From assembly GCA_019894975.1 (NCBI GenBank), contig JAGXNO010000048.1, positions 1-21,640 of the forward strand: a DNA stretch of 21,640 bases, written 5' to 3'. Below, in pieces: positions 734 to 21,640 of the stretch. Position numbers and translations under genes: made by a program. The notes below the pieces were generated by a model. It saw only the letters and a list, made by a program, of their open reading frames with translations. It had not been told where the DNA came from and did no database searches. Source of the stretch: Promethearchaeota archaeon. GTDB lineage: Archaea; Asgardarchaeota; Lokiarchaeia; Sigyniarchaeales; SOKP01. Numbering within the stretch: position 1 is the first letter of the stretch; every line of letters starts with the position of its first letter.

Positions 734-1759
734 TTATTTCGATTTAAATAAAGTTTCTGCTACTTTATAAAAACTCTGTTCTATATTTTTACCTGTTAAT
801 GCCGATGTTTCAACATAGTCAAGGTTTAGTGTTTCAGCAATCTTTAAAGCTTCTTCACTTAGGATTTGTCGTTCATCAAGCAAATCTTCTTTATTTCCAA
901 AAATTATACCAATTAAATCTTTCTCATACTTTTTTATATCATTAATCCAATTTGAAACACCTTCAAATGATTTGCGATTGGTAAGATCGAATATTAGAAT
1001 CACAGCATCGGTCCCTTTGTAAAAATGTCTTCTCATTAATTCGAATTTCGATTGCCCTGCAATATCCCAGAGAATTAGATTAACATGTTTATCACCTATT
1101 TCCATAAGCCTTTCAGAAATACTTACACCTAGGGTTGGAACATAGGTTCGCATAAAAGCATTATCCGTTAATCGCAAAACGGTACTAGTTTTTCCTACTC
1201 CCGGATCACCGCATACAACGATCTTGAAATTAGATTCTAATAGATCTTTTTTGAGTTCTTCTTCAGGAAAGGCTTCCAATTCGGATGTTGATTTTTCTTT
1301 TTGGTATAAGTCATCTAAGATTTCTGTTAATTTTAGTCGGAAATTATCTATCTCAATAAAGATCTCATCGCTTTTTGCGTCTCTATTTTCTAAATCAATA
1401 AGCTTCTTAGCACTCTCAGAAAAAACGGGTTCAAGGTAATCCATATACTTATAAAAAATAAGATCATCAGCCTCGTTAAACAACAAAGCCATTGATGACA
1501 ATGCAATACCCCCTCGTCGAGAGTCGTCTTCTCTCTCAATATATTTGATAATTCCTTTTAATTTAAATGCCGGGAAGGGCATAATTACTAATGAATTAGG
1601 AACAATTCCTTGATCTGTTGTAAGCATAGTAATAGTCTTAATACTTACACCCATTCGAATCTTTTCTGACAAATCAAGTGGAATCCATAAAAGGGGATTA
1701 GGACCAATAGTCTCGTCTAGTGATGTATATACGATTGCTTTGATAATATCTTCAGACAT
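734..1759 (-). CDS. Longin/uDENN-like domain fused to a Rab-like small GTPase (paralog A)
   Basis: The C-terminal half has G1 GDPGVGKTS, G2 PTLGV, G3 WDIAGQ, G4 NKED and G5 ETSAL. The N-terminal IKAIVYTSLDETIGPNPLLWIP matches the longin/uDENN first beta-hairpin pattern (D-x-x-x-G-P). No C-terminal cysteine for prenylation. Confidence 0.9.
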   Translation of the reverse strand: MSEDIIKAIVYTSLDETIGPNPLLWIPLDLSEKIRMGVSIKTITMLTTDQGIVPNSLVIMPFPAFKLKGIIKYIEREDDSRRGGIALSSMALLFNEADDLIFYKYMDYLEPVFSESAKKLIDLENRDAKSDEIFIEIDNFRLKLTEILDDLYQKEKSTSELEAFPEEELKKDLLESNFKIVVCGDPGVGKTSTVLRLTDNAFMRTYVPTLGVSISERLMEIGDKHVNLILWDIAGQSKFELMRRHFYKGTDAVILIFDLTNRKSFEGVSNWINDIKKYEKDLIGIIFGNKEDLLDERQILSEEALKIAETLNLDYVETSALTGKNIEQSFYKVAETLFKSK

Positions 1760-1887
1760 AGTTTAGGAACGCGTCAAAATGGTATAATAGAACTTTCTAG
1801 TTCAGTTGAGTTTTTTATATAGAGTATAATTATTGGGTTTAAAAAAACTATTTGTCCTTGTTTGTCTAATACCATTTTATAAATTGA

Positions 1888-1909
1888 TCGTGAAACCATC
1901 CTTTCACGA
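1888..1909 (-). terminator. Perfect 8-bp stem-loop 15 nt downstream of the paralog B stop; possible terminator, processing signal or operator
   Basis: TCGTGAAA-CCATCC-TTTCACGA. Confidence 0.4.
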
Positions 1910-1924
1910 AAATTACCTTTTTAA

Positions 1925-2965
1925 TTATTTTCGCGACTCATAAAGCTCTTTAGCAAGAGTTGTGAACGCATTGTCTACATTATCGCCTGAAAAGGCAGAG
2001 GTCTCTAGATACTTGAGGTTAAACTTTTCAGCTAATTTTCGAGCACTTTCAGAAGTTATTTTTTTATTTTTCAAATCTTTTTTGTTCCCAATAATAAAAC
2101 CTGTAATTTCCGCTTCAGGTAGACTAATATCTTTTTTAATATCTGAAAACCAGATGGGGATATTTCCAAAAGAATCAGGATTAGTTAAGTCAAAAACTAG
2201 AAAAACCGCGTCAGATCCTTGATAAAACTGTCTTCTCATGATCTTAAATCTTTCCTGACCCCCCACGTCCCATAAAACAAGTTGGATAATAGTAGAATCT
2301 TCAGTTTTAAAAATTTTATTCGAAACATGAACCCCCATTGTTGAAACATAAGATCTTCTAAAAGCATTATTCGTGTATCTTAAGATTAAGCTTGTTTTTC
2401 CCACCGTCGGGTCACCTACTACAACTATCTTAAATTGATAATCGATCATACTTCGATCAGTAATTTGCTCTGTTACTGCTTCAATTTTAGATTCTTCTAA
2501 TTCTTTTTTTCTAAATTTCTCTAGAAGTTCTACAATTGCATTTTCAAGATTCCTTAATTCCTGTAAAAATTTATCTTCATCCTCATTCGATTGTTCTAGG
2601 AAAGCAATATTTTGTGCGATATCATTGAACGGGTTTGATATCTCTTTCAAGTACTTATAGAAAATTACATCGTCCATTTCCTGAAATAATACAGTTATAT
2701 TTGATTGTCCAACACCCCCTCGCTTATCAGGATCATCCCACTGAATATATTTAATCAAACCTTTCAGTTGTAAGGATGGAAATGGTAAAATCACCAGAGA
2801 TTCTGGAATATGACCTTTCTCGCCAGTAAGAACCGCAAACGATTTGACGCTAATGTGAAGCAAATTTAATTGAGAAAAATCCTCTGGGAAAAATGCTTTT
2901 GGGTTGGGACCAACTTGTTCATCTAAATTGTTGTACATAATAGCTTTGATTATATCTCTTTCCAT
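1925..2965 (-). CDS. Longin/uDENN-like domain fused to a Rab-like small GTPase (paralog B)
   Basis: G1 GDPTVGKTS, G2 STMGV, G3 WDVGGQERF, G4 NKKD, G5 ETSAF. The N-terminal domain is colinear with paralog A (DIIKAI, LDExxGPNP, PFP, LKGxIKYI, RGG, IFYKY). Confidence 0.9.
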   Translation of the reverse strand: MERDIIKAIMYNNLDEQVGPNPKAFFPEDFSQLNLLHISVKSFAVLTGEKGHIPESLVILPFPSLQLKGLIKYIQWDDPDKRGGVGQSNITVLFQEMDDVIFYKYLKEISNPFNDIAQNIAFLEQSNEDEDKFLQELRNLENAIVELLEKFRKKELEESKIEAVTEQITDRSMIDYQFKIVVVGDPTVGKTSLILRYTNNAFRRSYVSTMGVHVSNKIFKTEDSTIIQLVLWDVGGQERFKIMRRQFYQGSDAVFLVFDLTNPDSFGNIPIWFSDIKKDISLPEAEITGFIIGNKKDLKNKKITSESARKLAEKFNLKYLETSAFSGDNVDNAFTTLAKELYESRK

Positions 2966-4293: not shown

Positions 4294-7206
4294 CTAGTAA
4301 ATACCAAACTCACGAATTTCACGTTTTAGCAAGGGTATTTTCTCTTTAAAGCTTCTTATATCACTATTAAATTTCTCGTAATACTTATCAAATTTGTCAA
4401 TTTTACCGTTATCTATTTCTTTCACAAAATCATAGGATACATTTTGAATTTTATTGAAAATATCATCGAATTTGTTAGTGGAATCTAGTAAGTTCTGATT
4501 TACTTTTTTACCTTGTTTCCTTACCATGTTCCGAAGTTTGCCTCTAGGGATTCTAATCTTTTCTATTAGACTATCACATTCATTTAGAAAATCGTAAGAT
4601 TTTTTCTTGTTCTCCTCACTAAGCTTAGCTTCAATTATTTCAGTTCTGTTACAGTTTATACGACCTCGAGCGAATGTATCAAAATTAAGGGAAATAGAAT
4701 CAATTCCTTCCCTTACTAAGAAACGTAGAAAATCAGGGTCATCACTAGGTGCTTGCCCACATATACCTACTTTTCTATCAAATTCGTGAGCTGTTTTAAT
4801 TAGATGACTTACTGATCTTCTTATTGATTCACTATTAGTATTATAATTATAATTATTCATCAAAGGAATCATTTTTTCATTATCTCGACCAACTCCGTAG
4901 GTTAATTGCGTGAGATCATTGCTCCCTATTGAAAACCCGTCAAAGACTTCGCTAAATATGTCAGCACAGATAATATTTGACGGAATTTCAGCCATTACAT
5001 AAACTTTCAGATTATTTTGACCTCGAATTAAACCTTCGGATTCCATAATTTCTATTATCTTTCGAGCTTCTTCAGGGCTCCTACAGAATGGTAGCATAGG
5101 TATAATATTTACCAAACCCCAATCTCTAGCCCTTTTAATTGCTCGTAATTCTAATATAAAAGCTTGCTGAAATTCATCATGTACATATCGTGAACAACCT
5201 CGAAAGCCTAGCATTGGATTATTTTCTTCTCCTTCATAAATCCAACCTCCAATAAGATTCGCATATTCATTAGTTTTAAAATCTGATAATCTGACTACAC
5301 ATTCAGCTAAACTACCATCATTTAATGTTTTCCATACACCTGCTGCAATGGTTGCTATCCCTTCAGCCAATTTATCTACATAAAACTCTTCTTTATCGTC
5401 ATAACCGACTGTTAATTCTCTTATCTTATCTAAAGTCTGCTTTAATTGAAAAATTTCTCGATTGAAAGGATCTTTGTGATAGAGGTCTGATTTTTTAATC
5501 GTTTCTATCTTATTTCTTTGATCTAAAAGAATATCATATCTCATTATTAAAGCTTCAAAATCAATTAATGCATTTGGGTGAATTTGAATCTCATCGTTAA
5601 TTATAAATTCTAATCTTGCTAACCCAGTCCCATCTGGGTGCTTCCCCGAAGAGAGTGCTCCCTTGGGGATTCCTAAATTTACTAAAACTTTGGTTTTTGT
5701 TTTAGGAAGTTTTGCAAATTCAATTGTATCAAAATCATACTCGACATCTTTTAACCATATTCTTGGTTCTCCTTCACTGCAATCAATGGTAACATACTCA
5801 ATACCTTCCCGTTGTTTTTCTTTCATAACTTGGATTATATCATCTGCCCCAACTATAGAAGCAATATTCAATTCTCTCGATACTATGGCAGCATGACAAG
5901 TCGGTCCTCCTCTTTCAGTAATTACTCCGCCTAGATTTTGCATATAAGATGTCCAATCGGGATTAGTTTCTTCTGTAATAAGGATATCTCCGTCTTTTAG
6001 AAGATGAGCATTATTTATTGATTCAATTATTTTTACTTTTCCAAAACCAATTCTTCTTCCTATAGCAATACCAGAATTTTCGATTAATAATTTGTTTTTT
6101 GTTAATTCTTCGGGATCTTCTAGAAGATAAAAGATCTCTTCGACGTCTCCCTTTATACTGTGAACAGTTTCAGGGCGAGCTTGAACAATATAAACTTTTC
6201 CATTGTTTCCTACAGCCCATTCTATATCCATTCTTCTCTCATAATGTTTCCTAATTTTTTGGGCAAAATCTGCTAATATTAAGACTTCCTCATCTTTTAA
6301 ACAATATATCAGTTGCTGATCTTCAGGAACGGGAACCACTTCGGTGCCGATCTTGTCGGTTCCTTCAGAAAAAATCATAATTTTTTCTTTTTTAACGAGT
6401 TCTCGACTAATGATTCTGAGCTCATTAGGATCATGTTTAAAAACTATGAACTCATCACCTTTTTCCACACCCTGTACAATTAGTTCCCCCAAACCCCAAG
6501 TTCCTCTGATTACAATCACGTTAGGGTTACCTGAATCAGGGTCTTCTGTAAACATGACACCAGATGCCTTGACACCTCCCAATCCCCCTGCCATCTCCTG
6601 AATTCCCACAGATAGTTTCACAGAAAAATGATCAAATCCCGCTCGTTCACGGTACATTGTCGCTCTTGTCGTAAAAACTGATGACATATCCCTTAAAATA
6701 TATTCTAAGATCTCCTTTTCTCCTGATATATTCAAATGTGTATCCTGTTGTCCCGCAAATGAAGCATCGGGTAGATCTTCAGCTGTAGCTGAACTTCTCA
6801 CAGCAAATGTAGATTCTTCCCCAATTTTTAAAATTAATTTTGAATAAGCATCTAAGATCTCATCAGCGAGGGAATCCGGTATTTTAGATTGTTCGATCAC
6901 ATATCGGATATTCGCACAAATCTTATCCACTTTTTCTACTGCTTTAATATCCTCTGATTTTAATTCATCAGATATTTTATTTATATCTCTTGCAATTAAC
7001 TCTCGGAGAGAAACTTCCTTCTCTTGAATAGTAAAGAAATTTGTATCTAAAACATAATCAAAAGCTTTCGAAGTTACCGCAAATCCTAGTGGTACAGAAA
7101 TCCCAAAGCTTAATAATTCTCCAAGTGATGCATTTTTACCACCTACAAGAGGTACATCATTAACTCGTACATCTTCAAAGAATTTTATATATCTATAATC
7201 ACTCAT
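4294..7206 (-). CDS. ppsA: Phosphoenolpyruvate synthase (pyruvate, water dikinase) with insertions and a C-terminal extension
   Basis: VGGKNASLGE, AVRSSATAEDLPDASFAGQQDT, DIEWA, QARPETVHS, phospho-His motif GGPTCHAAIVSRELN, EENNPMLGFRG, FSIGSNDLTQL, GICGQAPSD. Confidence 0.95.
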   Translation of the reverse strand: MSDYRYIKFFEDVRVNDVPLVGGKNASLGELLSFGISVPLGFAVTSKAFDYVLDTNFFTIQEKEVSLRELIARDINKISDELKSEDIKAVEKVDKICANIRYVIEQSKIPDSLADEILDAYSKLILKIGEESTFAVRSSATAEDLPDASFAGQQDTHLNISGEKEILEYILRDMSSVFTTRATMYRERAGFDHFSVKLSVGIQEMAGGLGGVKASGVMFTEDPDSGNPNVIVIRGTWGLGELIVQGVEKGDEFIVFKHDPNELRIISRELVKKEKIMIFSEGTDKIGTEVVPVPEDQQLIYCLKDEEVLILADFAQKIRKHYERRMDIEWAVGNNGKVYIVQARPETVHSIKGDVEEIFYLLEDPEELTKNKLLIENSGIAIGRRIGFGKVKIIESINNAHLLKDGDILITEETNPDWTSYMQNLGGVITERGGPTCHAAIVSRELNIASIVGADDIIQVMKEKQREGIEYVTIDCSEGEPRIWLKDVEYDFDTIEFAKLPKTKTKVLVNLGIPKGALSSGKHPDGTGLARLEFIINDEIQIHPNALIDFEALIMRYDILLDQRNKIETIKKSDLYHKDPFNREIFQLKQTLDKIRELTVGYDDKEEFYVDKLAEGIATIAAGVWKTLNDGSLAECVVRLSDFKTNEYANLIGGWIYEGEENNPMLGFRGCSRYVHDEFQQAFILELRAIKRARDWGLVNIIPMLPFCRSPEEARKIIEIMESEGLIRGQNNLKVYVMAEIPSNIICADIFSEVFDGFSIGSNDLTQLTYGVGRDNEKMIPLMNNYNYNTNSESIRRSVSHLIKTAHEFDRKVGICGQAPSDDPDFLRFLVREGIDSISLNFDTFARGRINCNRTEIIEAKLSEENKKKSYDFLNECDSLIEKIRIPRGKLRNMVRKQGKKVNQNLLDSTNKFDDIFNKIQNVSYDFVKEIDNGKIDKFDKYYEKFNSDIRSFKEKIPLLKREIREFGIY

Positions 7207-7920: not shown

Positions 7921-8679
7921 TTAAGGTTCCTGATCATGGTCGTGCTCATGATCATGTTCTGGTTCTTGCTTTTTAAATATCTCATCCAATTTCGATTTAT
8001 CGTCATCTGACATCTTACTCATTGCTTCCATTTGTTGTCTCATCAACATTTGCATGAAATTACTTGATACAATCTGGTTAAGAACAGGTAAAGCTATTCT
8101 CATCCGAGTTAATTCATAATGCATAGTTTTCGCAGTTTCTCTCATTTGGATTAAATCTTCTTTCGACATACCTTCTTCACCTATACCAGGGCAGTCGGCA
8201 TCAACTACTATGAAGTTTTTTCCATCAAATTCGAGAGGATATGTCCTACAACTCAATGGACGGTTATCATATATTAAGCACTTCTTGTCTTCTTTATTGT
8301 ATAAAGAACATTTAACCTCTAGTAATTCTTCGATTGGCTTAGTAGCAAATGGATCTTGTTGTAGATTAGCTCCTTCTTCTTCTTTAGGTGGAGGTAAGGG
8401 TTTTAGTATTAAATCAATACTGCCATCTGGTTTTTGATAAATATCTAGGTATGGCATAAAATTAGCAACAACCCCATTTTTTGCCCACATTTCTAAATCC
8501 CAAAATGTTATCGGGATTGGTCCTCTACTTAAACAACATGAATCACAACGAGTACACTTGAAGGTAAATTTAGTTTTAACTTCTTGTTCCTTTTCGGGGG
8601 ATTCTGTCGTTTCCGATTCTTGTACATTTGATTCTTCTTTTTCTTCTGAATTTTGATTTTCTGGATTATTTTCTGACAT
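7921..8679 (-). CDS. YkgJ family cysteine-cluster (CxxCxxCC) protein
   Basis: FKCTRCDSCC, CSLY, CLIYDNRPLSCRTYP and CPGIG. The start is placed at ATG 8679 (MSENN) rather than the TTG at 8718. Acidic N-terminus and His/Asp-rich C-terminal tail. Confidence 0.9.
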   Translation of the reverse strand: MSENNPENQNSEEKEESNVQESETTESPEKEQEVKTKFTFKCTRCDSCCLSRGPIPITFWDLEMWAKNGVVANFMPYLDIYQKPDGSIDLILKPLPPPKEEEGANLQQDPFATKPIEELLEVKCSLYNKEDKKCLIYDNRPLSCRTYPLEFDGKNFIVVDADCPGIGEEGMSKEDLIQMRETAKTMHYELTRMRIALPVLNQIVSSNFMQMLMRQQMEAMSKMSDDDKSKLDEIFKKQEPEHDHEHDHDQEP

Positions 8680-8785
8680 ATTTATTCTACCAATATGATG
8701 ATTATCTAATATTTTCAATGATTACAATATTTCTTTGAAAAAAAATATTAGTTTTAGTAATTATAATAATTATTAAAATAGGATT

Positions 8786-9385
8786 TTATCCATTTCTAAA
8801 TAACTTTTGATCTTCTAATAATCTTCCAAGCTTAGCCAGAACGGGTTCAATATCTTTTTCCATTCTAATCCCTGTAAGAACTATCTTACCCGTACTAAAT
8901 ATTAGAAAAACTGCTTTTACAGGAGCAGATATTTTATATGATAATCCTGGAAAAACCTCTGGTTCGTATATCGCATTATTCAATATGATTGATGCTGAAT
9001 CTAAATTAATAATTCTAGCAAAATCTGCGGTTACTACTATATTTACAACTTGAGTATCAATAGCTCCCTTTTTTAGACTAATGCTATTAATTTCATTTAG
9101 TCTTAATATAAGTCGTTCAATTATTAAATCAACATGTGAAAAAGATTTTAATCCTGTCAATATTAGTTTTCCATTTCTAAAAATTATAATAGCACTTTTA
9201 GGGTGGTTAAATCTTGTAAAAAGCCCTGGAAAGCGATCTTTGTCATACTGAGCGTTTTTTAAATTTTCAGATAGTAATAATAAATCTAGATTTTCCTCTA
9301 TATCCAAACGTGATTTAACCACAATATTTTGAATAGTATAGGTTAAACTACTCGTGTTTCCTCTTGATTTAGGTTCAAGAACCAT
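8786..9385 (-). CDS. tbp: TATA-box binding protein (divergent)
   Basis: Two TBP repeats: IQNIVV...RFPGL...IFRNGKLILTG and VVNIVVT...YEPEVFPGL...LIFSTGKIVLTG. The start is more likely ATG 9385 than 9430. Confidence 0.92.
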   Translation of the reverse strand: MVLEPKSRGNTSSLTYTIQNIVVKSRLDIEENLDLLLLSENLKNAQYDKDRFPGLFTRFNHPKSAIIIFRNGKLILTGLKSFSHVDLIIERLILRLNEINSISLKKGAIDTQVVNIVVTADFARIINLDSASIILNNAIYEPEVFPGLSYKISAPVKAVFLIFSTGKIVLTGIRMEKDIEPVLAKLGRLLEDQKLFRNG

Positions 9386-9508
9386 TATTGGACTCCAAAA
9401 CGTAAAGTAACCACAAAACTCTAATAACATATTAAGGTAGCATACTATTTAACTATACTATTTTGCTTAAGATCTGCTTAAAATGAGATTTTAACTTCCT
9501 AAATAAAA

Positions 9509-9631
9509 ATGACTGTTGAAGAGAAACCGCCTATTTCTGATAATGTCATAATGATCGTAATTATTGTTGTGGCAATAACCAGTGTAGTATGAATTGGAAT
9601 AGCAATATCTGTTTTGCGTAAAAAGAGACGA
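9509..9631 (+). pseudogene. Transmembrane helix plus basic tail segment interrupted by an in-frame TGA
   Basis: MTVEEKPPISDNVIMIVIIVVAITSVV*IGIAISVLRKKRR with TGA at 9590-9592, in frame with 9614..10084. Confidence 0.5.
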
Positions 9632-9715
9632 GTAGTTACAGGGAAATTTGTAATTAAAGTTTATAGAGGGAAAATTTGCAGTAAATTTAAATTAGATCTT
9701 GTAATCTGCATATAC

Positions 9716-10084
9716 ATGATATTAACAGTTAATATTCCCCCTGATTGGGAGAATGATAATATAAAACAAGTTTTCAAATCAATTATTGCTGGTTATAATA
9801 TGTATGGAGAGATAACTCTTTCAGAAACCAGCCCGAACGAATTCGAAGGTGTCTGTGGAAAAAATAGAAAATCTTTAGTTCCAGTTCCGGCAAAAATGCA
9901 GTATAAAGCAATTTTCAAAATTGAAAGTGGTTCTAATGGTTCAAAATTGCTTACCGATTATGAAGAAGGAAAAAAATTAAAAATAGGAAAGCTTGGAAAG
10001 AAATTTATTAAGATTTACTTCGAGAGCTTGCAGACAGCTTTTAAAGCAGTATTGGAAAAACCTTTCTCATCATTCAAAGAATAA
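9716..10084 (+). CDS. Hypothetical protein (about 122 aa from ATG 9716)
   Basis: Open frame with protein-like composition and no recognised motif. Start uncertain (9509, 9614 or 9716). Confidence 0.65.
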   Translation: MILTVNIPPDWENDNIKQVFKSIIAGYNMYGEITLSETSPNEFEGVCGKNRKSLVPVPAKMQYKAIFKIESGSNGSKLLTDYEEGKKLKIGKLGKKFIKIYFESLQTAFKAVLEKPFSSFKE

Positions 10085-11633: not shown

Positions 11634-11783
11634 AAGATGTAATTCATGTTAAGATTTCTAATAGATCCAAGTGATCGTTTCATTGCTAAAAAAAATAAAA
11701 ATATATTAGGAACTCTTTTTATGTATCTTTTGTAAAAAATTGTAAAATCGGTTGGAGTATTTCGTTTATTAAATGTGTTAGAC

Positions 11784-12767
11784 ATGGCTGAAGAGGATTT
11801 AAGAGAAATATTAGGAATAGCTAAAAAATCAAAATGGAATCAAATAAAGAAATTTATTAAATTTATTATTCAAAATACATTGAAGAAAGATGCAGGATAT
11901 AGCTTAACGGCTCTTGATGTTTCAGTTAATGGGAAAAAAACCCCAAAATATAACCTACTTATTAAAAACAAAGGAGAAATTAACGATATTGATAAAATAC
12001 TTGATTTTAACCACCTCTCTCTATATCAAGCCACCCATAATTCGAATAATCTTATTGAAATTTCTCAAAATAATGGCACGATTACTGTTTTAGCAAAATA
12101 TTTAGGCCCAAGTCTAAATAATTATCAAATTTTCGATTTTTCTGTTCATTTAAATGCATTAACTGAACCCTTTTTTACAATTGGTAATGGAATGAAAATA
12201 AGTTGTACTGGAATTTTAAAAATTATTAATAAAAGAGCAGAACTAATAGCAAAAACTAAAAAAGAGACAACAAAGAAAGAATCAAAGCAAGTAAAAGATA
12301 CAAAAATTCAAAATATAGAAGTGTTTGTATTTGAAAAACTGACTGATAAAAACGCTATTTGGAATGGAACTGAGACAAAAACCTTTCAAAATTGGAAAGC
12401 AAAAACTAAAAACAAATATCGGATAGAATCGGGGAATATTGCTTACTATAAAGGAAAGCCTACAAAAAAATTTTCACAATATTTAGAAAATCTTTATAAG
12501 AACATAAATAATAAAACCAAAAAGCCAAAAAAAAACCTAGATAAAAAAATAATAAGTTCAAAAAAAGATGATAAAGAAGTTTCAGAACAATTCATCTTTG
12601 AGACATTAACAGGCAAGAATGCTATATGGAATGGAACGGAGACAAAAACTTTTCAAAATTGGAAAGCAAAAACTAAAAACAAATATAAGAAAGAAATAGG
12701 AAAAAATCCATATTATAGTGGAAAATTAACTCAAACTTTTAAGAACTACCTAAAAACTCTTAATTAG
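11784..12767 (+). CDS. Lys-rich hypothetical protein with a duplicated C-terminal module
   Basis: Long ORF in which KNAIWNGTETKTFQNWKAKTKNKY occurs twice. The start is probably ATG 11784. Confidence 0.85.
   Translation: MAEEDLREILGIAKKSKWNQIKKFIKFIIQNTLKKDAGYSLTALDVSVNGKKTPKYNLLIKNKGEINDIDKILDFNHLSLYQATHNSNNLIEISQNNGTITVLAKYLGPSLNNYQIFDFSVHLNALTEPFFTIGNGMKISCTGILKIINKRAELIAKTKKETTKKESKQVKDTKIQNIEVFVFEKLTDKNAIWNGTETKTFQNWKAKTKNKYRIESGNIAYYKGKPTKKFSQYLENLYKNINNKTKKPKKNLDKKIISSKKDDKEVSEQFIFETLTGKNAIWNGTETKTFQNWKAKTKNKYKKEIGKNPYYSGKLTQTFKNYLKTLN
12348..12686 (+). repeat. Intragenic 72-bp direct repeat (12348-12419 and 12615-12686)
   Basis: 67/72 nt identical, and all five differences are synonymous third positions. 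Confidence 0.95.
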
Positions 12768-13054: not shown

Positions 13055-13957
13055 ATGTTAGAATTTGAGAAAAAACAAAAAGTTGTAGAAATATGTGGTA
13101 CCCGTATAGGAGGACAGCCGGGAGAAAACCCAATTGTTATGATTGGTACAGTTTTTTACGCTAAACATGCTGCTTTATTAAATGAGAAAACTGGTGAGAT
13201 CGATAAATCTTTAATTGAAAATGAGCTTAACGAATTTACCGAAGTTATAGAAGATACAAAAATGCAGGGAATAGTAGATGTAGTTGGGGCATATCCAGAA
13301 GCATTATTAAAAGAGTGTGAACTTGTGGCAGATTTAGTTGAGTATCCATTCTTAGTTGATGGATTAAATGACTCATCACGAATTCCCGCAATGGAAGGCC
13401 TGAAGGAAGTAGGATTAATTGATCGAGCTATTCTAAATAGTATTGATGAGGCTACTAGTGAAGAGAATCTTGAAAAACTAAAAGAGATTGGAGTTAAAAA
13501 TGCGGTCTTATTGACATTTGGGAGCAAATATATTTTTCCTCATCAAAAACTAAAATTATTAGAAGAAATATTGATTCCCAAGGCTCAAAAAGCAAATATA
13601 GAAAATATTATGATTGATACTGCTGTGCTAGATTTACCATCAATTTCAATAAACTTTGAAACTGGACATTTGGTTAAAAGTCAATTAGGTTTGCCCACAG
13701 GATTTGCTCCAGCAAATGCAATTTATGGATGGAACTTTGTTAAAAAATATGGAGAATCTCCAAGATGTGGAGCTATTGCTTCTATTATGACTTATTGTGC
13801 GAGTGCACCTAGTGACTTTATATTATTTGGTCCTATTAAATTTGCTAAATGTGTTGTACCTTCAGTGTCCTTAATTTCTGGTGTTAATGCTTATTATAGA
13901 AAAAGAATTCTCCGGAAAAAAATTTCAGAGGATACTCCCTTAAATGTAATCTTTTAG
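13055..13957 (+). CDS. mtrH: MtrH-like tetrahydromethanopterin/pterin-dependent methyltransferase, stand-alone
   Basis: N-terminus FEKKQKVVEICGTRIGGQPGENP, GTVFY, RAILNSI, IMIDTAV, GLPTG and DFILFGPI. No other mtr subunits are nearby. Confidence 0.9.
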   Translation: MLEFEKKQKVVEICGTRIGGQPGENPIVMIGTVFYAKHAALLNEKTGEIDKSLIENELNEFTEVIEDTKMQGIVDVVGAYPEALLKECELVADLVEYPFLVDGLNDSSRIPAMEGLKEVGLIDRAILNSIDEATSEENLEKLKEIGVKNAVLLTFGSKYIFPHQKLKLLEEILIPKAQKANIENIMIDTAVLDLPSISINFETGHLVKSQLGLPTGFAPANAIYGWNFVKKYGESPRCGAIASIMTYCASAPSDFILFGPIKFAKCVVPSVSLISGVNAYYRKRILRKKISEDTPLNVIF

Positions 13958-13975: not shown

Positions 13976-15481
13976 TTAAGCTATATATCTTAATAGTAAA
14001 TCTTGAGTTTGATTTAGAAAATCTTGTAATTCTTCATTTATTTTTTCTTTTCTTTTTTCATTTTCAACCAAGAATAATATGAACATGTCATTATCAGCTA
14101 TTTTAATTTTTCTGAAAAGTATTACTGAGTCAGCAACTTTAAAGATGGCATCCTCTTCCTTTAATGCTTTGAATCTAGAAAATATTTTGAATAACATAGC
14201 AAATTGAGGTGCAGTTATTTCAAAAATATTTACAATTTCTTCGGAATTAGTTATTTTTGTAAGTTTTTTTGCTTTTGGTGAGTAAAAATCGGCTAAAACT
14301 AACCCATCTACGCTCAACAATAATGTTAAGTATGTATTAGTTTTTAAAGAAAAATTTCTGAGATTGTGGTTAATTAGATTCCTATTTGGACTTAACTTTG
14401 ATATTCCCGAAGAAAATGCTCTTAGAATAGTAAAAATTTGGAAAATACTTGTCACATATAATTCGCAGGATTCTTCAGGAGAGACTTCGGCTAATTTTTG
14501 TCTCACAGTTTCAATATTTTCTATAATTTCTCTTGATTTTAGAATGTCAGGATCCCCTTTTGATAAAATATAGATGATCGGGGTATTTTGATTAAATTTC
14601 TTCAATACTTTTTTCAAATCTAAAAGGTATTCAATGCTTTCTTCAAATCTGGGTTTATTTCTTATATCTATAAAGTAAAATAATAAATCCGCTTCATATA
14701 AATATATTTCAGCTTTATTAGTGTATTTCTTTCTAAAAAGTAGTTGACCACCCAAATCCCATAGAAAGATTGTCGCTCCTAATGCTACTATTGAATTGAT
14801 ACTAGCTCCTGTAGTAGGTTTTAATCCAATTAGTTTACTAAATTTTCGATCAACCGAAAGTAGAAAACTAGTTTTTCCACTATCATCAAGACCTGCAAAC
14901 AGAATTTTCATCTTTCGGTGAGAAGTAATTGGAGTTGATGGATTTCTTTCGATGTCAATCAGTTTTTTGAATAAACCATAAAACAATGATTCTATTTTCT
15001 CTTGAGGCGGATAATTATCCATTAGTTCTTTATCAAAAGATTTAAAAAAATCGATAACAATCGGTTTTATTCTATTTATGTTATTATATAAGAAACTTCT
15101 ACGATTTTCATCAACTAATATTGAGAATGCTGTAGGAATCTGAGAATCGGAAGAATTTGTATTGATGTAATGAAAGTAAGTTAAAGAAGTCACATTAAAA
15201 TCAGGATAAGGTAAGATGGCAAAGTATTGTAAATTATCAATGTTTAAATCAGGGGTAAATGCCCTATCACTAATAAACAAACTAAGGTTTTTAATTGATA
15301 TTTGTGTTACATCTCTAGTTGATAATGTGAGGAGATTTTGTTTTTCCCTCTCTTCTTTGATATTTTCTAATTCCTTTTCAGAATAATATTGCGGCCATAC
15401 GTAAATTGGACTTGGACCCAAATCTCCATAAGAGCTGAAAATTAAACCTTTGACTATCGATGTCTTAAATAGTTCTTCCAT
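13976..15481 (-). CDS. Tripartite longin/uDENN-like + Rag/Arf-like GTPase + roadblock-like protein
   Basis: N-terminal GLIFSSYGDLGPSPIYVWP...ILPYPDF aligns with the N-termini of 734..1759 and 1925..2965. G1 GLDDSGKTS, G3 WDLGGQ, G4 SKGD, G5 TSIF. C-terminal LLLSVDGLVLADF roadblock-type hairpin. Confidence 0.85.
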   Translation of the reverse strand: MEELFKTSIVKGLIFSSYGDLGPSPIYVWPQYYSEKELENIKEEREKQNLLTLSTRDVTQISIKNLSLFISDRAFTPDLNIDNLQYFAILPYPDFNVTSLTYFHYINTNSSDSQIPTAFSILVDENRRSFLYNNINRIKPIVIDFFKSFDKELMDNYPPQEKIESLFYGLFKKLIDIERNPSTPITSHRKMKILFAGLDDSGKTSFLLSVDRKFSKLIGLKPTTGASINSIVALGATIFLWDLGGQLLFRKKYTNKAEIYLYEADLLFYFIDIRNKPRFEESIEYLLDLKKVLKKFNQNTPIIYILSKGDPDILKSREIIENIETVRQKLAEVSPEESCELYVTSIFQIFTILRAFSSGISKLSPNRNLINHNLRNFSLKTNTYLTLLLSVDGLVLADFYSPKAKKLTKITNSEEIVNIFEITAPQFAMLFKIFSRFKALKEEDAIFKVADSVILFRKIKIADNDMFILFLVENEKRKEKINEELQDFLNQTQDLLLRYIA

Positions 15482-15576: not shown

Positions 15577-16542
15577 ATGATACTCGAAAAGATTGCAAAC
15601 AGCATAAGAAATAATCAATATATTATCGAAAAGAAAGAAATCAATCCGATAGTTCAATACATCGAAAAAAATTCTTTCAAGAGTACCAAAATCTTTAGAG
15701 ATATTGGGGAAGACGCTGCTGCTGTAGAAAATGACGATAAATATATTTTAATCACAACAGATAGAATAAAAACCTCATTTATCGAGAATTTCCCTCGAGG
15801 TGCTGGCTATTCATCAATTTTAGTTAGTATCGATGATATTTATGCCTGTGGAGGTATTCCACTCGCAGCAAGTATTATTATTTCCTTAAGAGATCCTAAT
15901 ATCTATGAGGATCTATTAGCAGGAATTTGTGAAGGTTCTATGAAGTTTAAAGTTCCAATAATCCGAGGACATACAAATACCCAAGGAAAATGTTACGAAC
16001 TAAGTTCTACTATGATCGGAGAAATTAATAAACAAGATTATATTTCAGCAGGTAATGCACAAGTTGAAGATAATATAATACTGGTTGTAGATTTTGATGG
16101 AAGAATTGGAAAAGCAAGTAAACTTTTTTATGACACTACAATGTTCAAAAGTTCAGAAGAAGTGCTTTGGAAAAGAAGATCCATGAATATTATAGCAACA
16201 AAACATATTGTAAACGCTTCAAAAGATATTTCTAATGGAGGTATTTTTGGAACTTTATTACAACTTATTAATTATTCAAAGGTTGGCGCGGATGTAAATA
16301 TTTCACAAATTGAAATACCTCCCACATTGATTAATCAAGGATATGATTTAGAAACTTATATTAGAATGTACTTAACAACCTCTTTCTTACTTACTGCACC
16401 AGAAAAAAATTGCACGGAAATTATAGCTATATTTCAAGAATATGGATTAAATGCTAATATTATTGGTAATATTATTAAAGATCCGAATCTTTTGAGAATA
16501 AATAATGGAAAAGAAGAATCTATTGACGTACTCCGATTTTAG
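15577..16542 (+). CDS. AIR synthase-related (PurM-like) ATP-binding protein, methanogenesis marker 2 / sll0787-like
   Basis: IGEDAA, DDIYACGGIP, VPIIRGHT and KDISNGGIFGTL are PurM-superfamily motifs. Confidence 0.8.
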   Translation: MILEKIANSIRNNQYIIEKKEINPIVQYIEKNSFKSTKIFRDIGEDAAAVENDDKYILITTDRIKTSFIENFPRGAGYSSILVSIDDIYACGGIPLAASIIISLRDPNIYEDLLAGICEGSMKFKVPIIRGHTNTQGKCYELSSTMIGEINKQDYISAGNAQVEDNIILVVDFDGRIGKASKLFYDTTMFKSSEEVLWKRRSMNIIATKHIVNASKDISNGGIFGTLLQLINYSKVGADVNISQIEIPPTLINQGYDLETYIRMYLTTSFLLTAPEKNCTEIIAIFQEYGLNANIIGNIIKDPNLLRINNGKEESIDVLRF

Positions 16543-17246: not shown

Positions 17247-18260
17247 ATGAATGTTAACATTTGTCTAATCGGAAAGGGGATAGTTGGAACTAGCCTAATT
17301 CAGATTTTATTAAATAAAAAAGAGTTTTTTGAACGAAAATTTAATATTAATTTTGTAGTGAATTCAATAATAGAAATTGATGGTGCTCTTATTAATTCAC
17401 AAGGAATTGATTTAAAGGAAGTTATAGATATCAAAGAAAATTTTAGACGTTTACCCTATTGGGAGAAGGATGCAAAGTTTGAAGATATAACATCGAAACT
17501 AAATATAGCTATCTGTATAGAAACTACACCCACTAATCCGAAGACTGGGGAACCAGGGCTATCTCACATAATCCATGCCCTAGATAATAAAATAGACGCC
17601 GTTTCGTCTAATAAAGGACCGCTTTATCTTGAGTATGAAAAATTAAGAAAGTTAGCTAAATTAAATAATTGTTATTTAAAATATGAGGCAACTGTAGCAA
17701 GTTGTGTTCCCACTTTGGGAATTAAAGAAGCTTTAATTGCGAATGAAATTATCAGTATTAAAGCTATATTAAATGGCACTTCTAATTTTATTTTGAGTAG
17801 AATGACTACTGAGGGTATAAATTTCGATTTAGCTTTAAAAGAAGCACAGGAATTAGGATATGCTGAATCAGATCCTACATTGGATGTCGAAGGCTATGAC
17901 GCTGCAGGGAAGTTGGTAATTTTGGCAAATGAACTACTAGGATGGTCTAAGAAGATAACTGATGTACAAGTAGAGGGTATTTCAAAAGTTTCATCACATA
18001 CAATAGAATTAGCTAATACTGATGGTTATGTTATTAAACATTTAGCGATTGCTGAGAATAACAAACTAATCGTAACCCCTCGTTTAATTGAAAAACATTC
18101 TCCCCTAAATATTAGTGGAAACCTAAACGCTATGGAACTACAAACCAAATATGCAGGCCCAATATTGTTAATAGGAAGAGGTGCTGGAGGATTTGAGGCG
18201 GCATCTGCCATTCTAAATGATTTAATTTATATTTCAAAAAGGAGAGGATATATTACTTGA
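17247..18260 (+). CDS. hom: Homoserine dehydrogenase
   Basis: GKGIVG Rossmann motif, SNKGPL, YEATV, ILNGTSNFIL, AQELGYAESDPTLDVEGYDAAGK, GRGAGG. Confidence 0.96.
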   Translation: MNVNICLIGKGIVGTSLIQILLNKKEFFERKFNINFVVNSIIEIDGALINSQGIDLKEVIDIKENFRRLPYWEKDAKFEDITSKLNIAICIETTPTNPKTGEPGLSHIIHALDNKIDAVSSNKGPLYLEYEKLRKLAKLNNCYLKYEATVASCVPTLGIKEALIANEIISIKAILNGTSNFILSRMTTEGINFDLALKEAQELGYAESDPTLDVEGYDAAGKLVILANELLGWSKKITDVQVEGISKVSSHTIELANTDGYVIKHLAIAENNKLIVTPRLIEKHSPLNISGNLNAMELQTKYAGPILLIGRGAGGFEAASAILNDLIYISKRRGYIT

Positions 18261-18763
18261 AAAGGGATTTTAAAGCAGTCGTTTCTGTAATTGGAGCAAG
18301 TGAAATTAATAAAGAAATAGAAGAAAAAACAATTGAAATTGGAAGATTACTCGCAATTAATAACTACGCGGTGGCATGTGGAGGACTTACGGGCGTAATG
18401 GAAGCAATATGCAAAGGTGCTAAAGAAGAGGGGGGTTTTACAATAGGAATAATTCCTTATACAGAAAAAAGTATGGCAAATAAATATGTTGATGTTGTTA
18501 TCCCCTGTCCTTTCTCTCAAGCTAGAAATATTGTAGTTGTACTAGCTGGAGATATATGTTTAGCTATTAGTGGTAAAGCCGGAACATTATCTGAGATTTG
18601 TTTTGCATGGATATATAATAAACCGATTATAGCCTTATCTAGTGTTGAAGGATGGTCTTCTAATATTGCTAATCAAAGGTTAGATGATAGGAGAAGTGAT
18701 ATGATACATGGAGTAGATAATCCCTCAGAAGTAATCACCAAAATTAATGAATTGCTAAAATAA
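18257..18763 (+). CDS. LOG/TIGR00725-type nucleotide-binding protein
   Basis: CGGLTGVMEA, TIGIIP, ARN and GKAGTLSE. Its TTG start overlaps the hom TGA stop (TTGA). Confidence 0.9.
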   Translation: MKRDFKAVVSVIGASEINKEIEEKTIEIGRLLAINNYAVACGGLTGVMEAICKGAKEEGGFTIGIIPYTEKSMANKYVDVVIPCPFSQARNIVVVLAGDICLAISGKAGTLSEICFAWIYNKPIIALSSVEGWSSNIANQRLDDRRSDMIHGVDNPSEVITKINELLK

Positions 18764-20228: not shown

Positions 20229-21203
20229 TTGGAGAAGGATCTAAAACAATCAATCTTATATCTGAAAAAAGAAGAACCTGAAGCCCAAGTGGCTGCTACC
20301 AAAATCTTATTCACGGGGCTCGACGATGCAGGCAAAACAAGTATTATCCTTGCTCTTCAGAGAGAATTTTCAAAAATCGCAGTACTCTCTCCTACTAGAG
20401 GCGCACAGAGAAGAGTCTTTGATTTTTTAGGAAAAGAAATCGCAGAATGGGATCTTGGGGGACAAATTAGTTATAGAATTTCATACTTAAAGAACCCGAG
20501 TAAGTTTTTTGATGGAACTGAGATTGCAATTTATGTTATCGATATTCAAAATAAACCAAGAATACCTGAAGCAATAAGTTATTTTAAGGATGTAGTAGTG
20601 CAATTTAACCAATTAGAAATCGAACCCCCAATCTATATATTCCTTCATAAATTAGATCCTGCTTTAAGAAGAGGTGCTGCAAATGAAATGCAAAATCTTA
20701 CAATAGACTTAAAAGAACAAGTAAAAAAGGCTACAGATTATAAAGAATTATACTTCTATGAAACTTCGATTTACGATTTTAGTACCATTATACGAGCAAT
20801 GTCTGAAATTATGCTTAGTTTATACCCAAAATCTGAATTGATAGAAAAGACCATTACCGAATTCGCAAAAAAGATTGACTCCCAAGGAGTGGTTGTAATT
20901 GATGATAATTCCCTTGTAATCGGTTCTTATTATAAAGATGATGAAACTAAACACCTACTAACGGCCTCAACTCCGTATTTTCTTACATTAAATGATAACA
21001 TTCAGTACACTGGTGTGCTGGAAAACAAATATGAAGATAAAATGATTGTTCAAAGATTTGGAAAGAACTTTATCTTTAAGCAAATTAGCTTAAAAAAGGA
21101 TTCAACACCATATTATTTACTGCTTCTCAAGGAAGATCCTGTATTTCAAAAAGAAGATTTTTTCTTCTTTGCAAATATAATGAAGGAGATTTTGTACAAG
21201 TAG
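20229..21203 (+). CDS. Rag/Gtr-like small GTPase with a C-terminal roadblock-like domain
   Basis: G1 GLDDAGKTS, G3 WDLGGQ, Rag-type G4 HKLD and G5 TSIYD, C-terminal VVVIDDNSLVIGSY. TTG start 9 nt after GGTGA (20215-20219). Confidence 0.88.
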   Translation: MEKDLKQSILYLKKEEPEAQVAATKILFTGLDDAGKTSIILALQREFSKIAVLSPTRGAQRRVFDFLGKEIAEWDLGGQISYRISYLKNPSKFFDGTEIAIYVIDIQNKPRIPEAISYFKDVVVQFNQLEIEPPIYIFLHKLDPALRRGAANEMQNLTIDLKEQVKKATDYKELYFYETSIYDFSTIIRAMSEIMLSLYPKSELIEKTITEFAKKIDSQGVVVIDDNSLVIGSYYKDDETKHLLTASTPYFLTLNDNIQYTGVLENKYEDKMIVQRFGKNFIFKQISLKKDSTPYYLLLLKEDPVFQKEDFFFFANIMKEILYK

Positions 21204-21386
21204 AAGTAAAAAATTATGTTGTATAATATTTGTCTAATTTATCGTAGCTAAAATTAATAAAATCAAATTTTTACTAATAAATTATACAACAAAAAACTAA
21301 AAATCAAGACTTTCTTATATTTCTATAAGGATTATTGGCTATAACAGTTTTTTAAGATTTTAAATTCATGGAGGAGAGATAATACA

Positions 21387-21640
21387 ATTATCATTTGTCA
21401 AAATTGTGGTACAACAAATAACGAAAAAGTAAATCGCACTTGTAGAACATGTGGTGCTTTACTTCCAATCTCTTCAAAATCAAAAAAAACTCGGAAACCA
21501 AGAATTGTTGTAGAACAACAAGACAATACAAAATCCTCTAATCAAAAGGTTGAATTACAAGAAATTCCAAAAGAACCGAAGTTAACTCTCAATGAAATTC
21601 CGGTAGAGACCAACCAAACTGTTGAGAATGAATCTCTTAT
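21387..21640 (+). CDS. Zinc-ribbon protein, partial (runs off the window), probable ATT start
   Basis: (M)IICQNCGTTNNEKVNRTCRTCGALLP followed by a low-complexity linker. The frame has no ATG, GTG or TTG after the TAA at 21342. GGAGGAGA at 21370-21377. Confidence 0.75.
   Translation, partial: MIICQNCGTTNNEKVNRTCRTCGALLPISSKSKKTRKPRIVVEQQDNTKSSNQKVELQEIPKEPKLTLNEIPVETNQTVENESL

Follow-up and report, generated by a model that had tools for sequence, protein, structure and literature searches.

The question raised by this stretch of Lokiarchaeia DNA is what a longin domain without an arginine finger does at the front of a Rag-type GTPase. The stretch (the window, 21,640 nucleotides) is a whole contig, C118, of 21.6 kb, out of a 3.9-Mb genome in 175 contigs with ~30% GC, and the protein concerned, P0001, combines a longin, a G domain of the Rag/Gtr type and a roadblock domain in one chain. 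In eukaryotic nutrient signalling the Rag GTPases are heterodimers whose two subunits hold opposite nucleotides, and the longin GTPase-activating proteins (GAPs) are heterodimers in which a single subunit carries the arginine. The origin of these two asymmetries, of nucleotide in the Rags and of arginine in the longins, is the wider question on which P0001 and its full-length paralogue P0242 bear. We refer to P0001 and its orthologues as type A and to P0242 and its orthologues as type B. Our tentative reading, which we put slightly short of an even chance, is that, in an old and conserved pair, P0001 is the member without the arginine (type A), and that A and B form a heterodimer with one arginine finger, provided by B. 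P0001 is laid out as follows:

13976..15481, minus strand: P0001, 'type A' longin-Rag-roadblock GTPase of 501 aa, an intact open reading frame (ORF)
14942..15466, minus strand: longin domain, residues ~6-180 (from AlphaFold2, VIA-align, Foldseek and hhalign)
15413..15418, minus strand: GP motif, G22-P23, in the β1-β2 loop (from alignments of type A, type B and the Rab fusions)
15314..15385, minus strand: charged insertion of ~20 aa after β2, residues ~33-56, predicted to be helical (from alignments and AlphaFold2)
15137..15166, minus strand: β4-β5 loop INTNSSDSQI, residues 106-115, without arginine (from alignments)
14396..14911, minus strand: Rag/Gtr-type G domain, residues ~191-362 (from Pfam, phmmer and motifs)
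14870-14893, 14744-14758 and 14552-14563, minus strand: the motifs G1 (GLDDSGKT), G3 (DLGGQ) and G4 (SKGD), to which G5 (TSIF) is added
13979..14386, minus strand: C-terminal roadblock domain, residues ~366-501 (from AlphaFold2 topology and Foldseek)

That P0001 is a fusion of longin, Rag/Gtr GTPase and roadblock had been claimed in a preliminary description made from the window alone, and this is confirmed by the agreement of the Pfam Gtr1_RagA match with the longin and roadblock topologies of the AlphaFold2 (AF2) models. The search for homologues returned 362, and those among the 120 listed are mostly ~500 aa long and 60-91% identical. Gtr1_RagA (PF04670) covers residues 192-419 over profile positions 1-231 of 232 (E 1e-19), and its score of 71.3 bits against a cutoff of 22 places P0001 in the Rag/Gtr family; phmmer with the G domain finds LokiRagO (8yl2) at 6e-28 and RagA at ~1e-11. 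GLDDSGKT, T223, WDLGGQ with its switch II glutamine, SKGD and TSIF show little or no variation across 37 orthologues, so that on these alignments the G domain keeps all predicted nucleotide-binding and catalytic motifs. The Lys and Asp of the [NT]KxD motif are what specifies guanine. The G4 motif had been flagged earlier as atypical. None of the 37 aligned orthologues departs from S307, K308 or D310, and the motif is a conservative variant of [NT]KxD and not a sign of decay, because the Lys and Asp are retained and type A proteins of a second family of the order, f3, have TKxD at this place.

The C-terminus is modelled with the α-ββ-α-βββ-α topology of roadblock domains. The full-length model (predicted local distance difference test, pLDDT, 69.7; predicted template modelling score, pTM, 0.51) has LokiRagO 8yl2 (E 9e-15), RagA, Gtr1 and LokiRagM as its top Foldseek matches, and the alignments to full-length RagA, Gtr1 and LokiRagO extend over ~300-340 columns with the roadblock domains included; the predicted structure thus shows the roadblock of P0001 to be Rag-like. 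A departure within type A was seen in two f3 proteins (L015:11437-12978 and L017:401-1936), where WDIPGK replaces the catalytic switch II Gln with Lys. The second of these comes from a 4.36-Mb single-contig genome, and their sister sequences in f3 have WDIPGQ. In some lineages type A may be impaired in hydrolysis.

The identity of the N-terminal domain is less immediately apparent. Pfam has no match in the first 185 aa of P0001, and a domain of ~170 aa without Pfam assignment also precedes the GTPase in both Ras/Rab-like genes near the start of the window:

734..2965 (734-1759 and 1925-2965), minus strand: two tandem longin-Rab-like fusions of 341 and 346 aa, whose longins keep both GP and R-G

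The preliminary description had aligned the N-domain of P0001 with these two domains over three motif pairs. BLASTP reproduces the motif alignments with the N-domain of 734-1759 (E 2e-5) and finds no match to that of 1925-2965 alone, so that homology to the second fusion had to be sought with profiles. In hhalign a profile of 37 P0001 orthologues and one of 35 Rab-fusion orthologues align with a probability of 96.8% and E 4.1e-10 over 152 columns, recovering all three motif pairs together with the ~20-residue insertion after the first hairpin. The possibility that the domains are not homologous, on which the earlier proposal was said to stand or fall, was thus tested, and they are found to be homologous.

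Modelled alone from a 40-sequence alignment, the N-domain (pLDDT 86.7, pTM 0.85) has the longin order ββαβββαα. Foldseek matched it to the Lokiarchaeal longin 8yqg (E 4.5e-7) and to the K. lactis Lst4 longin (E 2.7e-4), and further to GATOR1-KICSTOR chains (9o5a, 9v0j and 9o5d), the active FLCN complex (8dhb) and C9orf72-SMCR8. A run of VIA-align against 48,161 representative chains gave Z 17.4 for 8yqg (root-mean-square deviation 2.3 Å over 144 residues), 13.6 for Lst4 (4zy8_C), 12.6 for C9orf72-SMCR8 (7o2w_A), 12.2 and 12.0 for the FLCN complex chains 6nzd_H and 6ulg_N, 10.9 for 6lt0_B, and 10.7 or less for TRAPP, adaptin and SNARE longins. Since the GAP longins rank above those of TRAPP and adaptins, the model shows the N-domain to be a predicted longin of the FLCN/FNIP/C9orf72-SMCR8 structural class, from which the eukaryotic Rag and Arf GAPs are built. 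At the level of sequence, Pfam Folliculin (PF11704) has no match in P0001 at E 0.1 or better, and the longin is followed by the Rag G domain and roadblock and not by a DENN domain. Among PDB sequences the single match to a profile of the Arg-bearing longins was 8yqg (E 0.0095), with GP aligned and no arginine in the loop, and FLCN, SMCR8 and NPRL2 were not found; the link to the eukaryotic GAP longins is therefore structural, supplemented by a sub-threshold Pfam match described below.

The same longin model aligns to roadblock structures as well, with Z of 7-8.5, and this brings in an arrangement in which the longin and roadblock of one chain, as related folds that dimerise in the same way, would pair with each other as an intramolecular pseudo-dimer and together support the G domain of that chain, with no partner needed. 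Natural proteins joining the two domains exist, 8yqg being derived from a Roadblock-Longin protein, and according to Tran et al. (PMC10933270) the G domain varies in its position with respect to longin and roadblock. However, no contact of this kind can be read in the full-length AF2 model at its pTM of 0.51, 8yqg was deposited under a title that names a dimeric longin domain, meaning that longin pairs with longin, and the arrangement leaves unexplained why one paralogue always keeps the arginine and the other never does. We regard it as improbable.

Which residues of a catalytic longin are then present in P0001? The GP motif (G22-P23) is invariant in its orthologues and across type A, type B and the Rab fusions. 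It has been described as specific to FLCN, NPRL2, SMCR8 and C9orf72, where it lies beside the arginine finger, and as missing in FNIP2 and NPRL3; in every longin GAP pair of eukaryotes a single subunit has the finger, and stand-alone Asgard longins with both the GP and Arg motifs were reported in the same study (Traffic 2025, PMC12290439). The loop expected to bear the finger is located exactly where the preliminary description had placed it, at nucleotides 15137-15166, and INTNSSDSQI is variable, with no Arg conserved either in the 37 orthologues or in 20 type A sequences from two families. Type A has a one-residue gap at the column where the Rab fusions (R88 and G89 in a 20-sequence alignment) and type B have an invariant R-G. 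Thus the longin is of one subfamily with those fused to Rab and lacks the arginine which those keep, as had been proposed, and the charged insertion of ~20 aa is also real, spanning residues ~33-56 and found in all type A sequences. Two arginines considered as relocated fingers were provisionally rejected: R56 is not conserved in every type A sequence, and R128, conserved in all those aligned, would lie, as we read the longin topology, at the β5-α2 junction, opposite the GP loop.

A longin that has lost its finger might simply be a remnant of gene duplication, in decay and without a role of its own. Type A does evolve faster than B and than the plain Rag of the window, and the longin is its least conserved domain. 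Nevertheless, against the nearest fetched relative (locus L002) the P0001 longin has a nonsynonymous divergence (dN) of 0.09 and a synonymous divergence (dS) of 1.19, so that dN/dS is about 0.08, indicating purifying selection, and the long blocks TQISIKNLSL, ILPYPDF and RSFLYNN are invariant in 37 orthologues. The type A gene is also intact in every fetched locus of both families. Conservation contradicts decay, which we consider scarcely credible, and a conserved gene under selection fits the role of a non-catalytic partner suggested earlier.

The arginine that type A lacks is found in its paralogue. Searching the six-frame ORFs of the genome with hidden Markov models of the two N-domain families revealed P0242, of 488 aa, at 8512-9978 on the minus strand of contig C144, which, being outside the window, had escaped the preliminary description. 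P0242 and P0001 are colinear from end to end (32% identity, E 9e-80). P0242 matches Gtr1_RagA at 4.5e-24, has the canonical G4 motif NKFD and no insertion, and its loop reads D-E-T-A-R-G-Q, the arginine being Arg109. Over this ARG region Pfam Folliculin gives a sub-threshold match (21.0 bits against a cutoff of 23.3, E 3.1e-4). P0242 has its own tightly conserved orthogroup. We fetched 20 loci from several genera of family f1 and from family f3, including the single-contig genomes G135 (4.36 Mb) and G138 (6.04 Mb), and the same two classes recur throughout: type A has the insertion, GP and no conserved loop arginine, and type B has an invariant A-R-G and no insertion. Every sequence of both families thus conforms to what would be expected of a non-catalytic longin standing beside a paralogous arginine-bearing one. 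In type B of genus g2 (L008:9056-10552 and L009:8846-10330), G3 reads WELGGQ, the Asp of DxxG being replaced by Glu.

The direction of this change can be judged from the wider subfamily. The profile of the Arg-bearing longin, run against 1.84 billion representative proteins, found 251 representatives at E 0.001 or better, with lengths clustering at ~340-360 aa (longin-Rab) and ~460-525 aa (longin-Rag-roadblock), in addition to shorter ones. Most of the 150 representatives listed keep R-G, and most of the Arg-less, GP-bearing ones among them carry an insertion of 11-22 aa after β2, with one exception where the insertion occurs together with A-R-G. Loss of the arginine therefore appears to be a derived and stable state that accompanies the insertion. 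A Pfam scan of ten longer or odd-architecture hits gave eight Gtr1_RagA fusions, one longin-Ras-TIR and two without a Pfam match, and no eukaryote-like folliculin was seen among these ten. Folliculin is 579 aa long, and P0449, of the same length, was considered as a candidate and set aside, as it is a longin-Rag fusion. In the protein with a TIR domain, P0395 (525 aa), a longin of this subfamily, with GP and R-G, is joined to a Ras-family GTPase, and the TIR is at the C-terminus.

How old and how widespread is the pair? Among 400 genomes of the phylum, relatives of P0001 at E 1e-40 or better are nearly all in the window's own order, in families f1-f4, with 125 of 134 genomes positive in f1; outside the order only two genomes of family f5 have them, at about 1e-41. 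By hand count at least two matches occur in 117 of the order's 154 genomes, usually exactly two (type A and the cross-hit to B), orthologues of P0242 are present in 131 of the 154, and both types are near-universal in f1. The phylogeny also included the plain Rag of the window:

20229..21203, plus strand: Rag324, a plain Rag-roadblock GTPase of 324 aa, LokiRagO-like (Pfam 4.6e-26)

An IQ-TREE phylogeny of the G domain and roadblock region recovers an A clade (97/94) and a B clade (96/90) as sisters (93/82), each holding f1 and f3 subclades, with the Rag324 clade separate (100/100). The two clades mirror each other in this way, which places the duplication before the split of f1 and f3, and the tree is consistent with one such event in an ancestor whose domains were already joined. 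The faster evolution of A is evident from the identity of f3 proteins to the window copies, 32-34% for A against 40-43% for B and 44-48% for Rag324. One single-contig genome, G188, is a peculiar case: at its locus L019 (G188:C1:2790000-2809999) mtrH stands on one side of type A, the AIRS-like, SLOG and Rag324 genes are not on the other, and no type B was found anywhere in the genome, the best match to P0242 (7e-69) being the type A gene itself.

A and B are also linked on the chromosome. In nearly every genome that has both on one contig they are divergent and 4-22 kb apart. Most f1 genera have ~7-10 kb between them, two f3 genomes ~4 kb. The core order A, AIRS-like gene, SLOG (LDcluster4) gene, Rag324, in some cases a Zn-ribbon protein, NERD-like gene, B is kept to family f3, with the threonine genes (ACT, hom and thrC) and nrdD as variable inserts. 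In the closest fetched relative, L002, the Rag324 orthologue is followed by the Zn-ribbon, NERD-like, nrdD and type B genes found at the end of C144. Contigs C118 and C144 therefore abut, which puts ~10 kb between A and B here as well. The Zn-ribbon gene itself is split by the contig break, between 21204-21640 of the window and 13069-13608 of C144 (L001).

This neighbourhood bears on the partners originally proposed. In the preliminary description P0001 was to be a bridge, its longin pairing with one of the longin-Rabs (734-1759 or 1925-2965) and its roadblock with the Rag at 20229. All four GTPase genes do lie on one 21-kb contig, the longins are homologous with R-G retained in the Rab fusions, and Rag324, which matches 8yl2 at E 4.7e-85, is a conserved neighbour of A down to family f3. 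However, synteny between A and the longin-Rab genes is limited to genera g1 and g12, these genes not being in the fetched flanks of A in g2, g7 and f3, the title of the Rag324 homologue 8yl2 describes a homotetramer, and the full-length paralogue B would offer both interfaces at once and so be the more economical partner. Since the longin-Rab linkage is confined to close relatives, type B is a better candidate partner of A than the longin-Rabs; the comparative support for the bridge is weaker than that for the A:B pair, and the bridge, on our estimate, is unlikely.

We propose instead that A and B associate with each other. Four observations favour an A:B heterodimer: there is usually one copy of each per genome, the clades are mirrored, the divergent linkage is conserved, and one arginine per pair parallels the eukaryotic GAPs. 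The two proteins would form a 1:1 heterodimer in which the roadblock domains pair like those of RagA-RagC and Gtr1-Gtr2, and the longins in the manner of FLCN-FNIP and SMCR8-C9orf72. Since type A has no arginine, such a complex would carry a single finger, supplied by B. The A longin, which like C9orf72 keeps GP and has no Arg, would contribute the non-catalytic half of the pocket, and the finger of B could stimulate GTP hydrolysis on one G domain at a time, giving rise to the asymmetric nucleotide states typical of Rag dimers.

Several facts weigh against this proposal. In the solved Lokiarchaeal structures LokiRagO (8yl2) forms a homotetramer and LokiRagM is monomeric, and proteins of this architecture were modelled as homodimers by Tran et al. 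(PMC10933270). The full-length AF2 model of P0001 is only moderate, with pLDDT of 28-49 over residues ~200-260, so that its domain packing is unreadable. The equivalence of the loop to that bearing R164 in FLCN is drawn from the A-R-G motif, the sub-threshold Pfam match and the similarity of fold, and not from residue-level superposition. Type A was not found in the near-complete assemblies G178, G199, G168, G240 and G262, nor type B in G188, G203 and G209, although several single-paralogue cases are truncations at contig ends. In the single-contig G135 A and B are ~80 kb apart. Finally, they do not form an operon, and because housekeeping genes (threonine biosynthesis, NrdD, AIRS-like and SLOG) separate them, the linkage may be inherited gene order.

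Some of these facts suit a P0001 that acts independently of B, as a homodimer or monomer whose longin is a non-catalytic platform, with any GAP activity supplied in trans by other Arg-bearing longin proteins of the genome. The platform could be an effector- or membrane-binding surface, or an allosteric or guanine nucleotide exchange factor-like regulator of the protein's own G domain. The homo-oligomeric or monomeric state of the solved Loki Rags, the homodimers modelled by Tran et al. (PMC10933270) and the assemblies with A and no B are all compatible with this, and the invariant R128, N133-N134 and R137 specific to type A, together with the insertion, suggest that it has a surface of its own. 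Yet two copies per genome are usual, the phylogenies of the two clades match, divergent linkage persists throughout the order, the loss of Arg is stable over the whole A clade and B never loses its Arg. We therefore hold independence from B to be unlikely, though it deserves serious consideration, and continue to prefer the A:B heterodimer.

Other genes of the window were noted as well. An AIR-synthase-related gene (15577-16542) and the SLOG/LDcluster4 gene (18257-18763) are found between A and Rag324 in both families, and mtrH (13055-13957) adjoins this block of AIRS-like, SLOG and type A genes. AIRS/SLOG-type gene pairs occur in tetrahydromethanopterin-linked clusters, and the two genes may belong to housekeeping rather than to the GTPase system. 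A Lys-rich ORF of 330 aa on the plus strand (11775-12767), without a Pfam match, contains two copies of a ~60-aa repeat (KNAIWNGTETKTFQNWKAKTKNKY); no counterpart was seen in the flanking regions of the relatives checked. On the minus strand, a 970-aa ORF (4294-7206), similar by eye to PEP (phosphoenolpyruvate)-utilising enzymes, has a Lys/Glu-rich C-terminal extension of ~130 aa and is conserved in syntenic relatives.

What is new here has to be separated from what was already known. A Rag-like G domain between longin and roadblock has been published for MK-D1 ('Ca. Prometheoarchaeum syntrophicum'; Tran et al. 2024, PMC10933270), in a three-domain layout identical to that of P0001; both this layout and the Asgard GP and Arg motifs (PMC12290439) are known. 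The searched text of PMC10933270 makes no separation of Arg-bearing from Arg-less paralogues and contains no description of their linkage, and neither the paralogue pair nor its linkage was found described in the literature searched. Relatives of both types occur at loci L017 and L018 of the 4.36-Mb single-contig genome of the same order, G135, and P0001 is only ~32-34% identical to the type A proteins of f3, those of G135 included.

The A/B pair names likely partners for Asgard GTPases which, according to Tran et al. (PMC10933270), could not be matched to regulators by genome layout, and offers a small two-protein system where GAP action in cis or in trans, nucleotide asymmetry and longin pairing become biochemically testable. 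An obligate A:B heterodimer could further be the forerunner, or an analogue, in a single complex of the asymmetries of both RagA-RagC and FLCN-FNIP/SMCR8-C9orf72, with the GAP covalently tethered to its client GTPases and one arginine finger serving two G domains in turn; we consider this conceivable, and place it clearly below an even chance. If it holds, the asymmetric logic of Rag signalling would be present in compact form in Lokiarchaeia.

Among known structures, 8yqg, the Lokiarchaeal Roadblock-Longin, is the closest solved fold to the P0001 longin, although identity is only 16-18% and its partner domain is a roadblock, with no GTPase. With the Rag/Gtr GTPases (RagA/B-RagC/D, Gtr1-Gtr2) and with LokiRagO (8yl2) and LokiRagM (8zla/9m28) P0001 shares the G domain and C-terminal roadblock, and A and B form a paralogue pair in each genome as RagA and RagC do; it differs in the extra N-terminal longin and in G4, SKGD compared to HKLD in the plain Rag of the window, and the A/B duplication is confined to one archaeal order. 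After the Loki longin, the best structural matches to its longin are FLCN-FNIP (Lst7-Lst4), NPRL2-NPRL3 (GATOR1) and SMCR8-C9orf72. In contrast to these GAP longins, P0001 has no DENN domain and its longin is fused to the presumed client GTPase; it keeps GP like C9orf72, whereas FNIP2 and NPRL3 are without it, and the pattern of the eukaryotic pairs, GP in the β1-β2 loop with Arg in one member only (PMC12290439), is shared by A and B.

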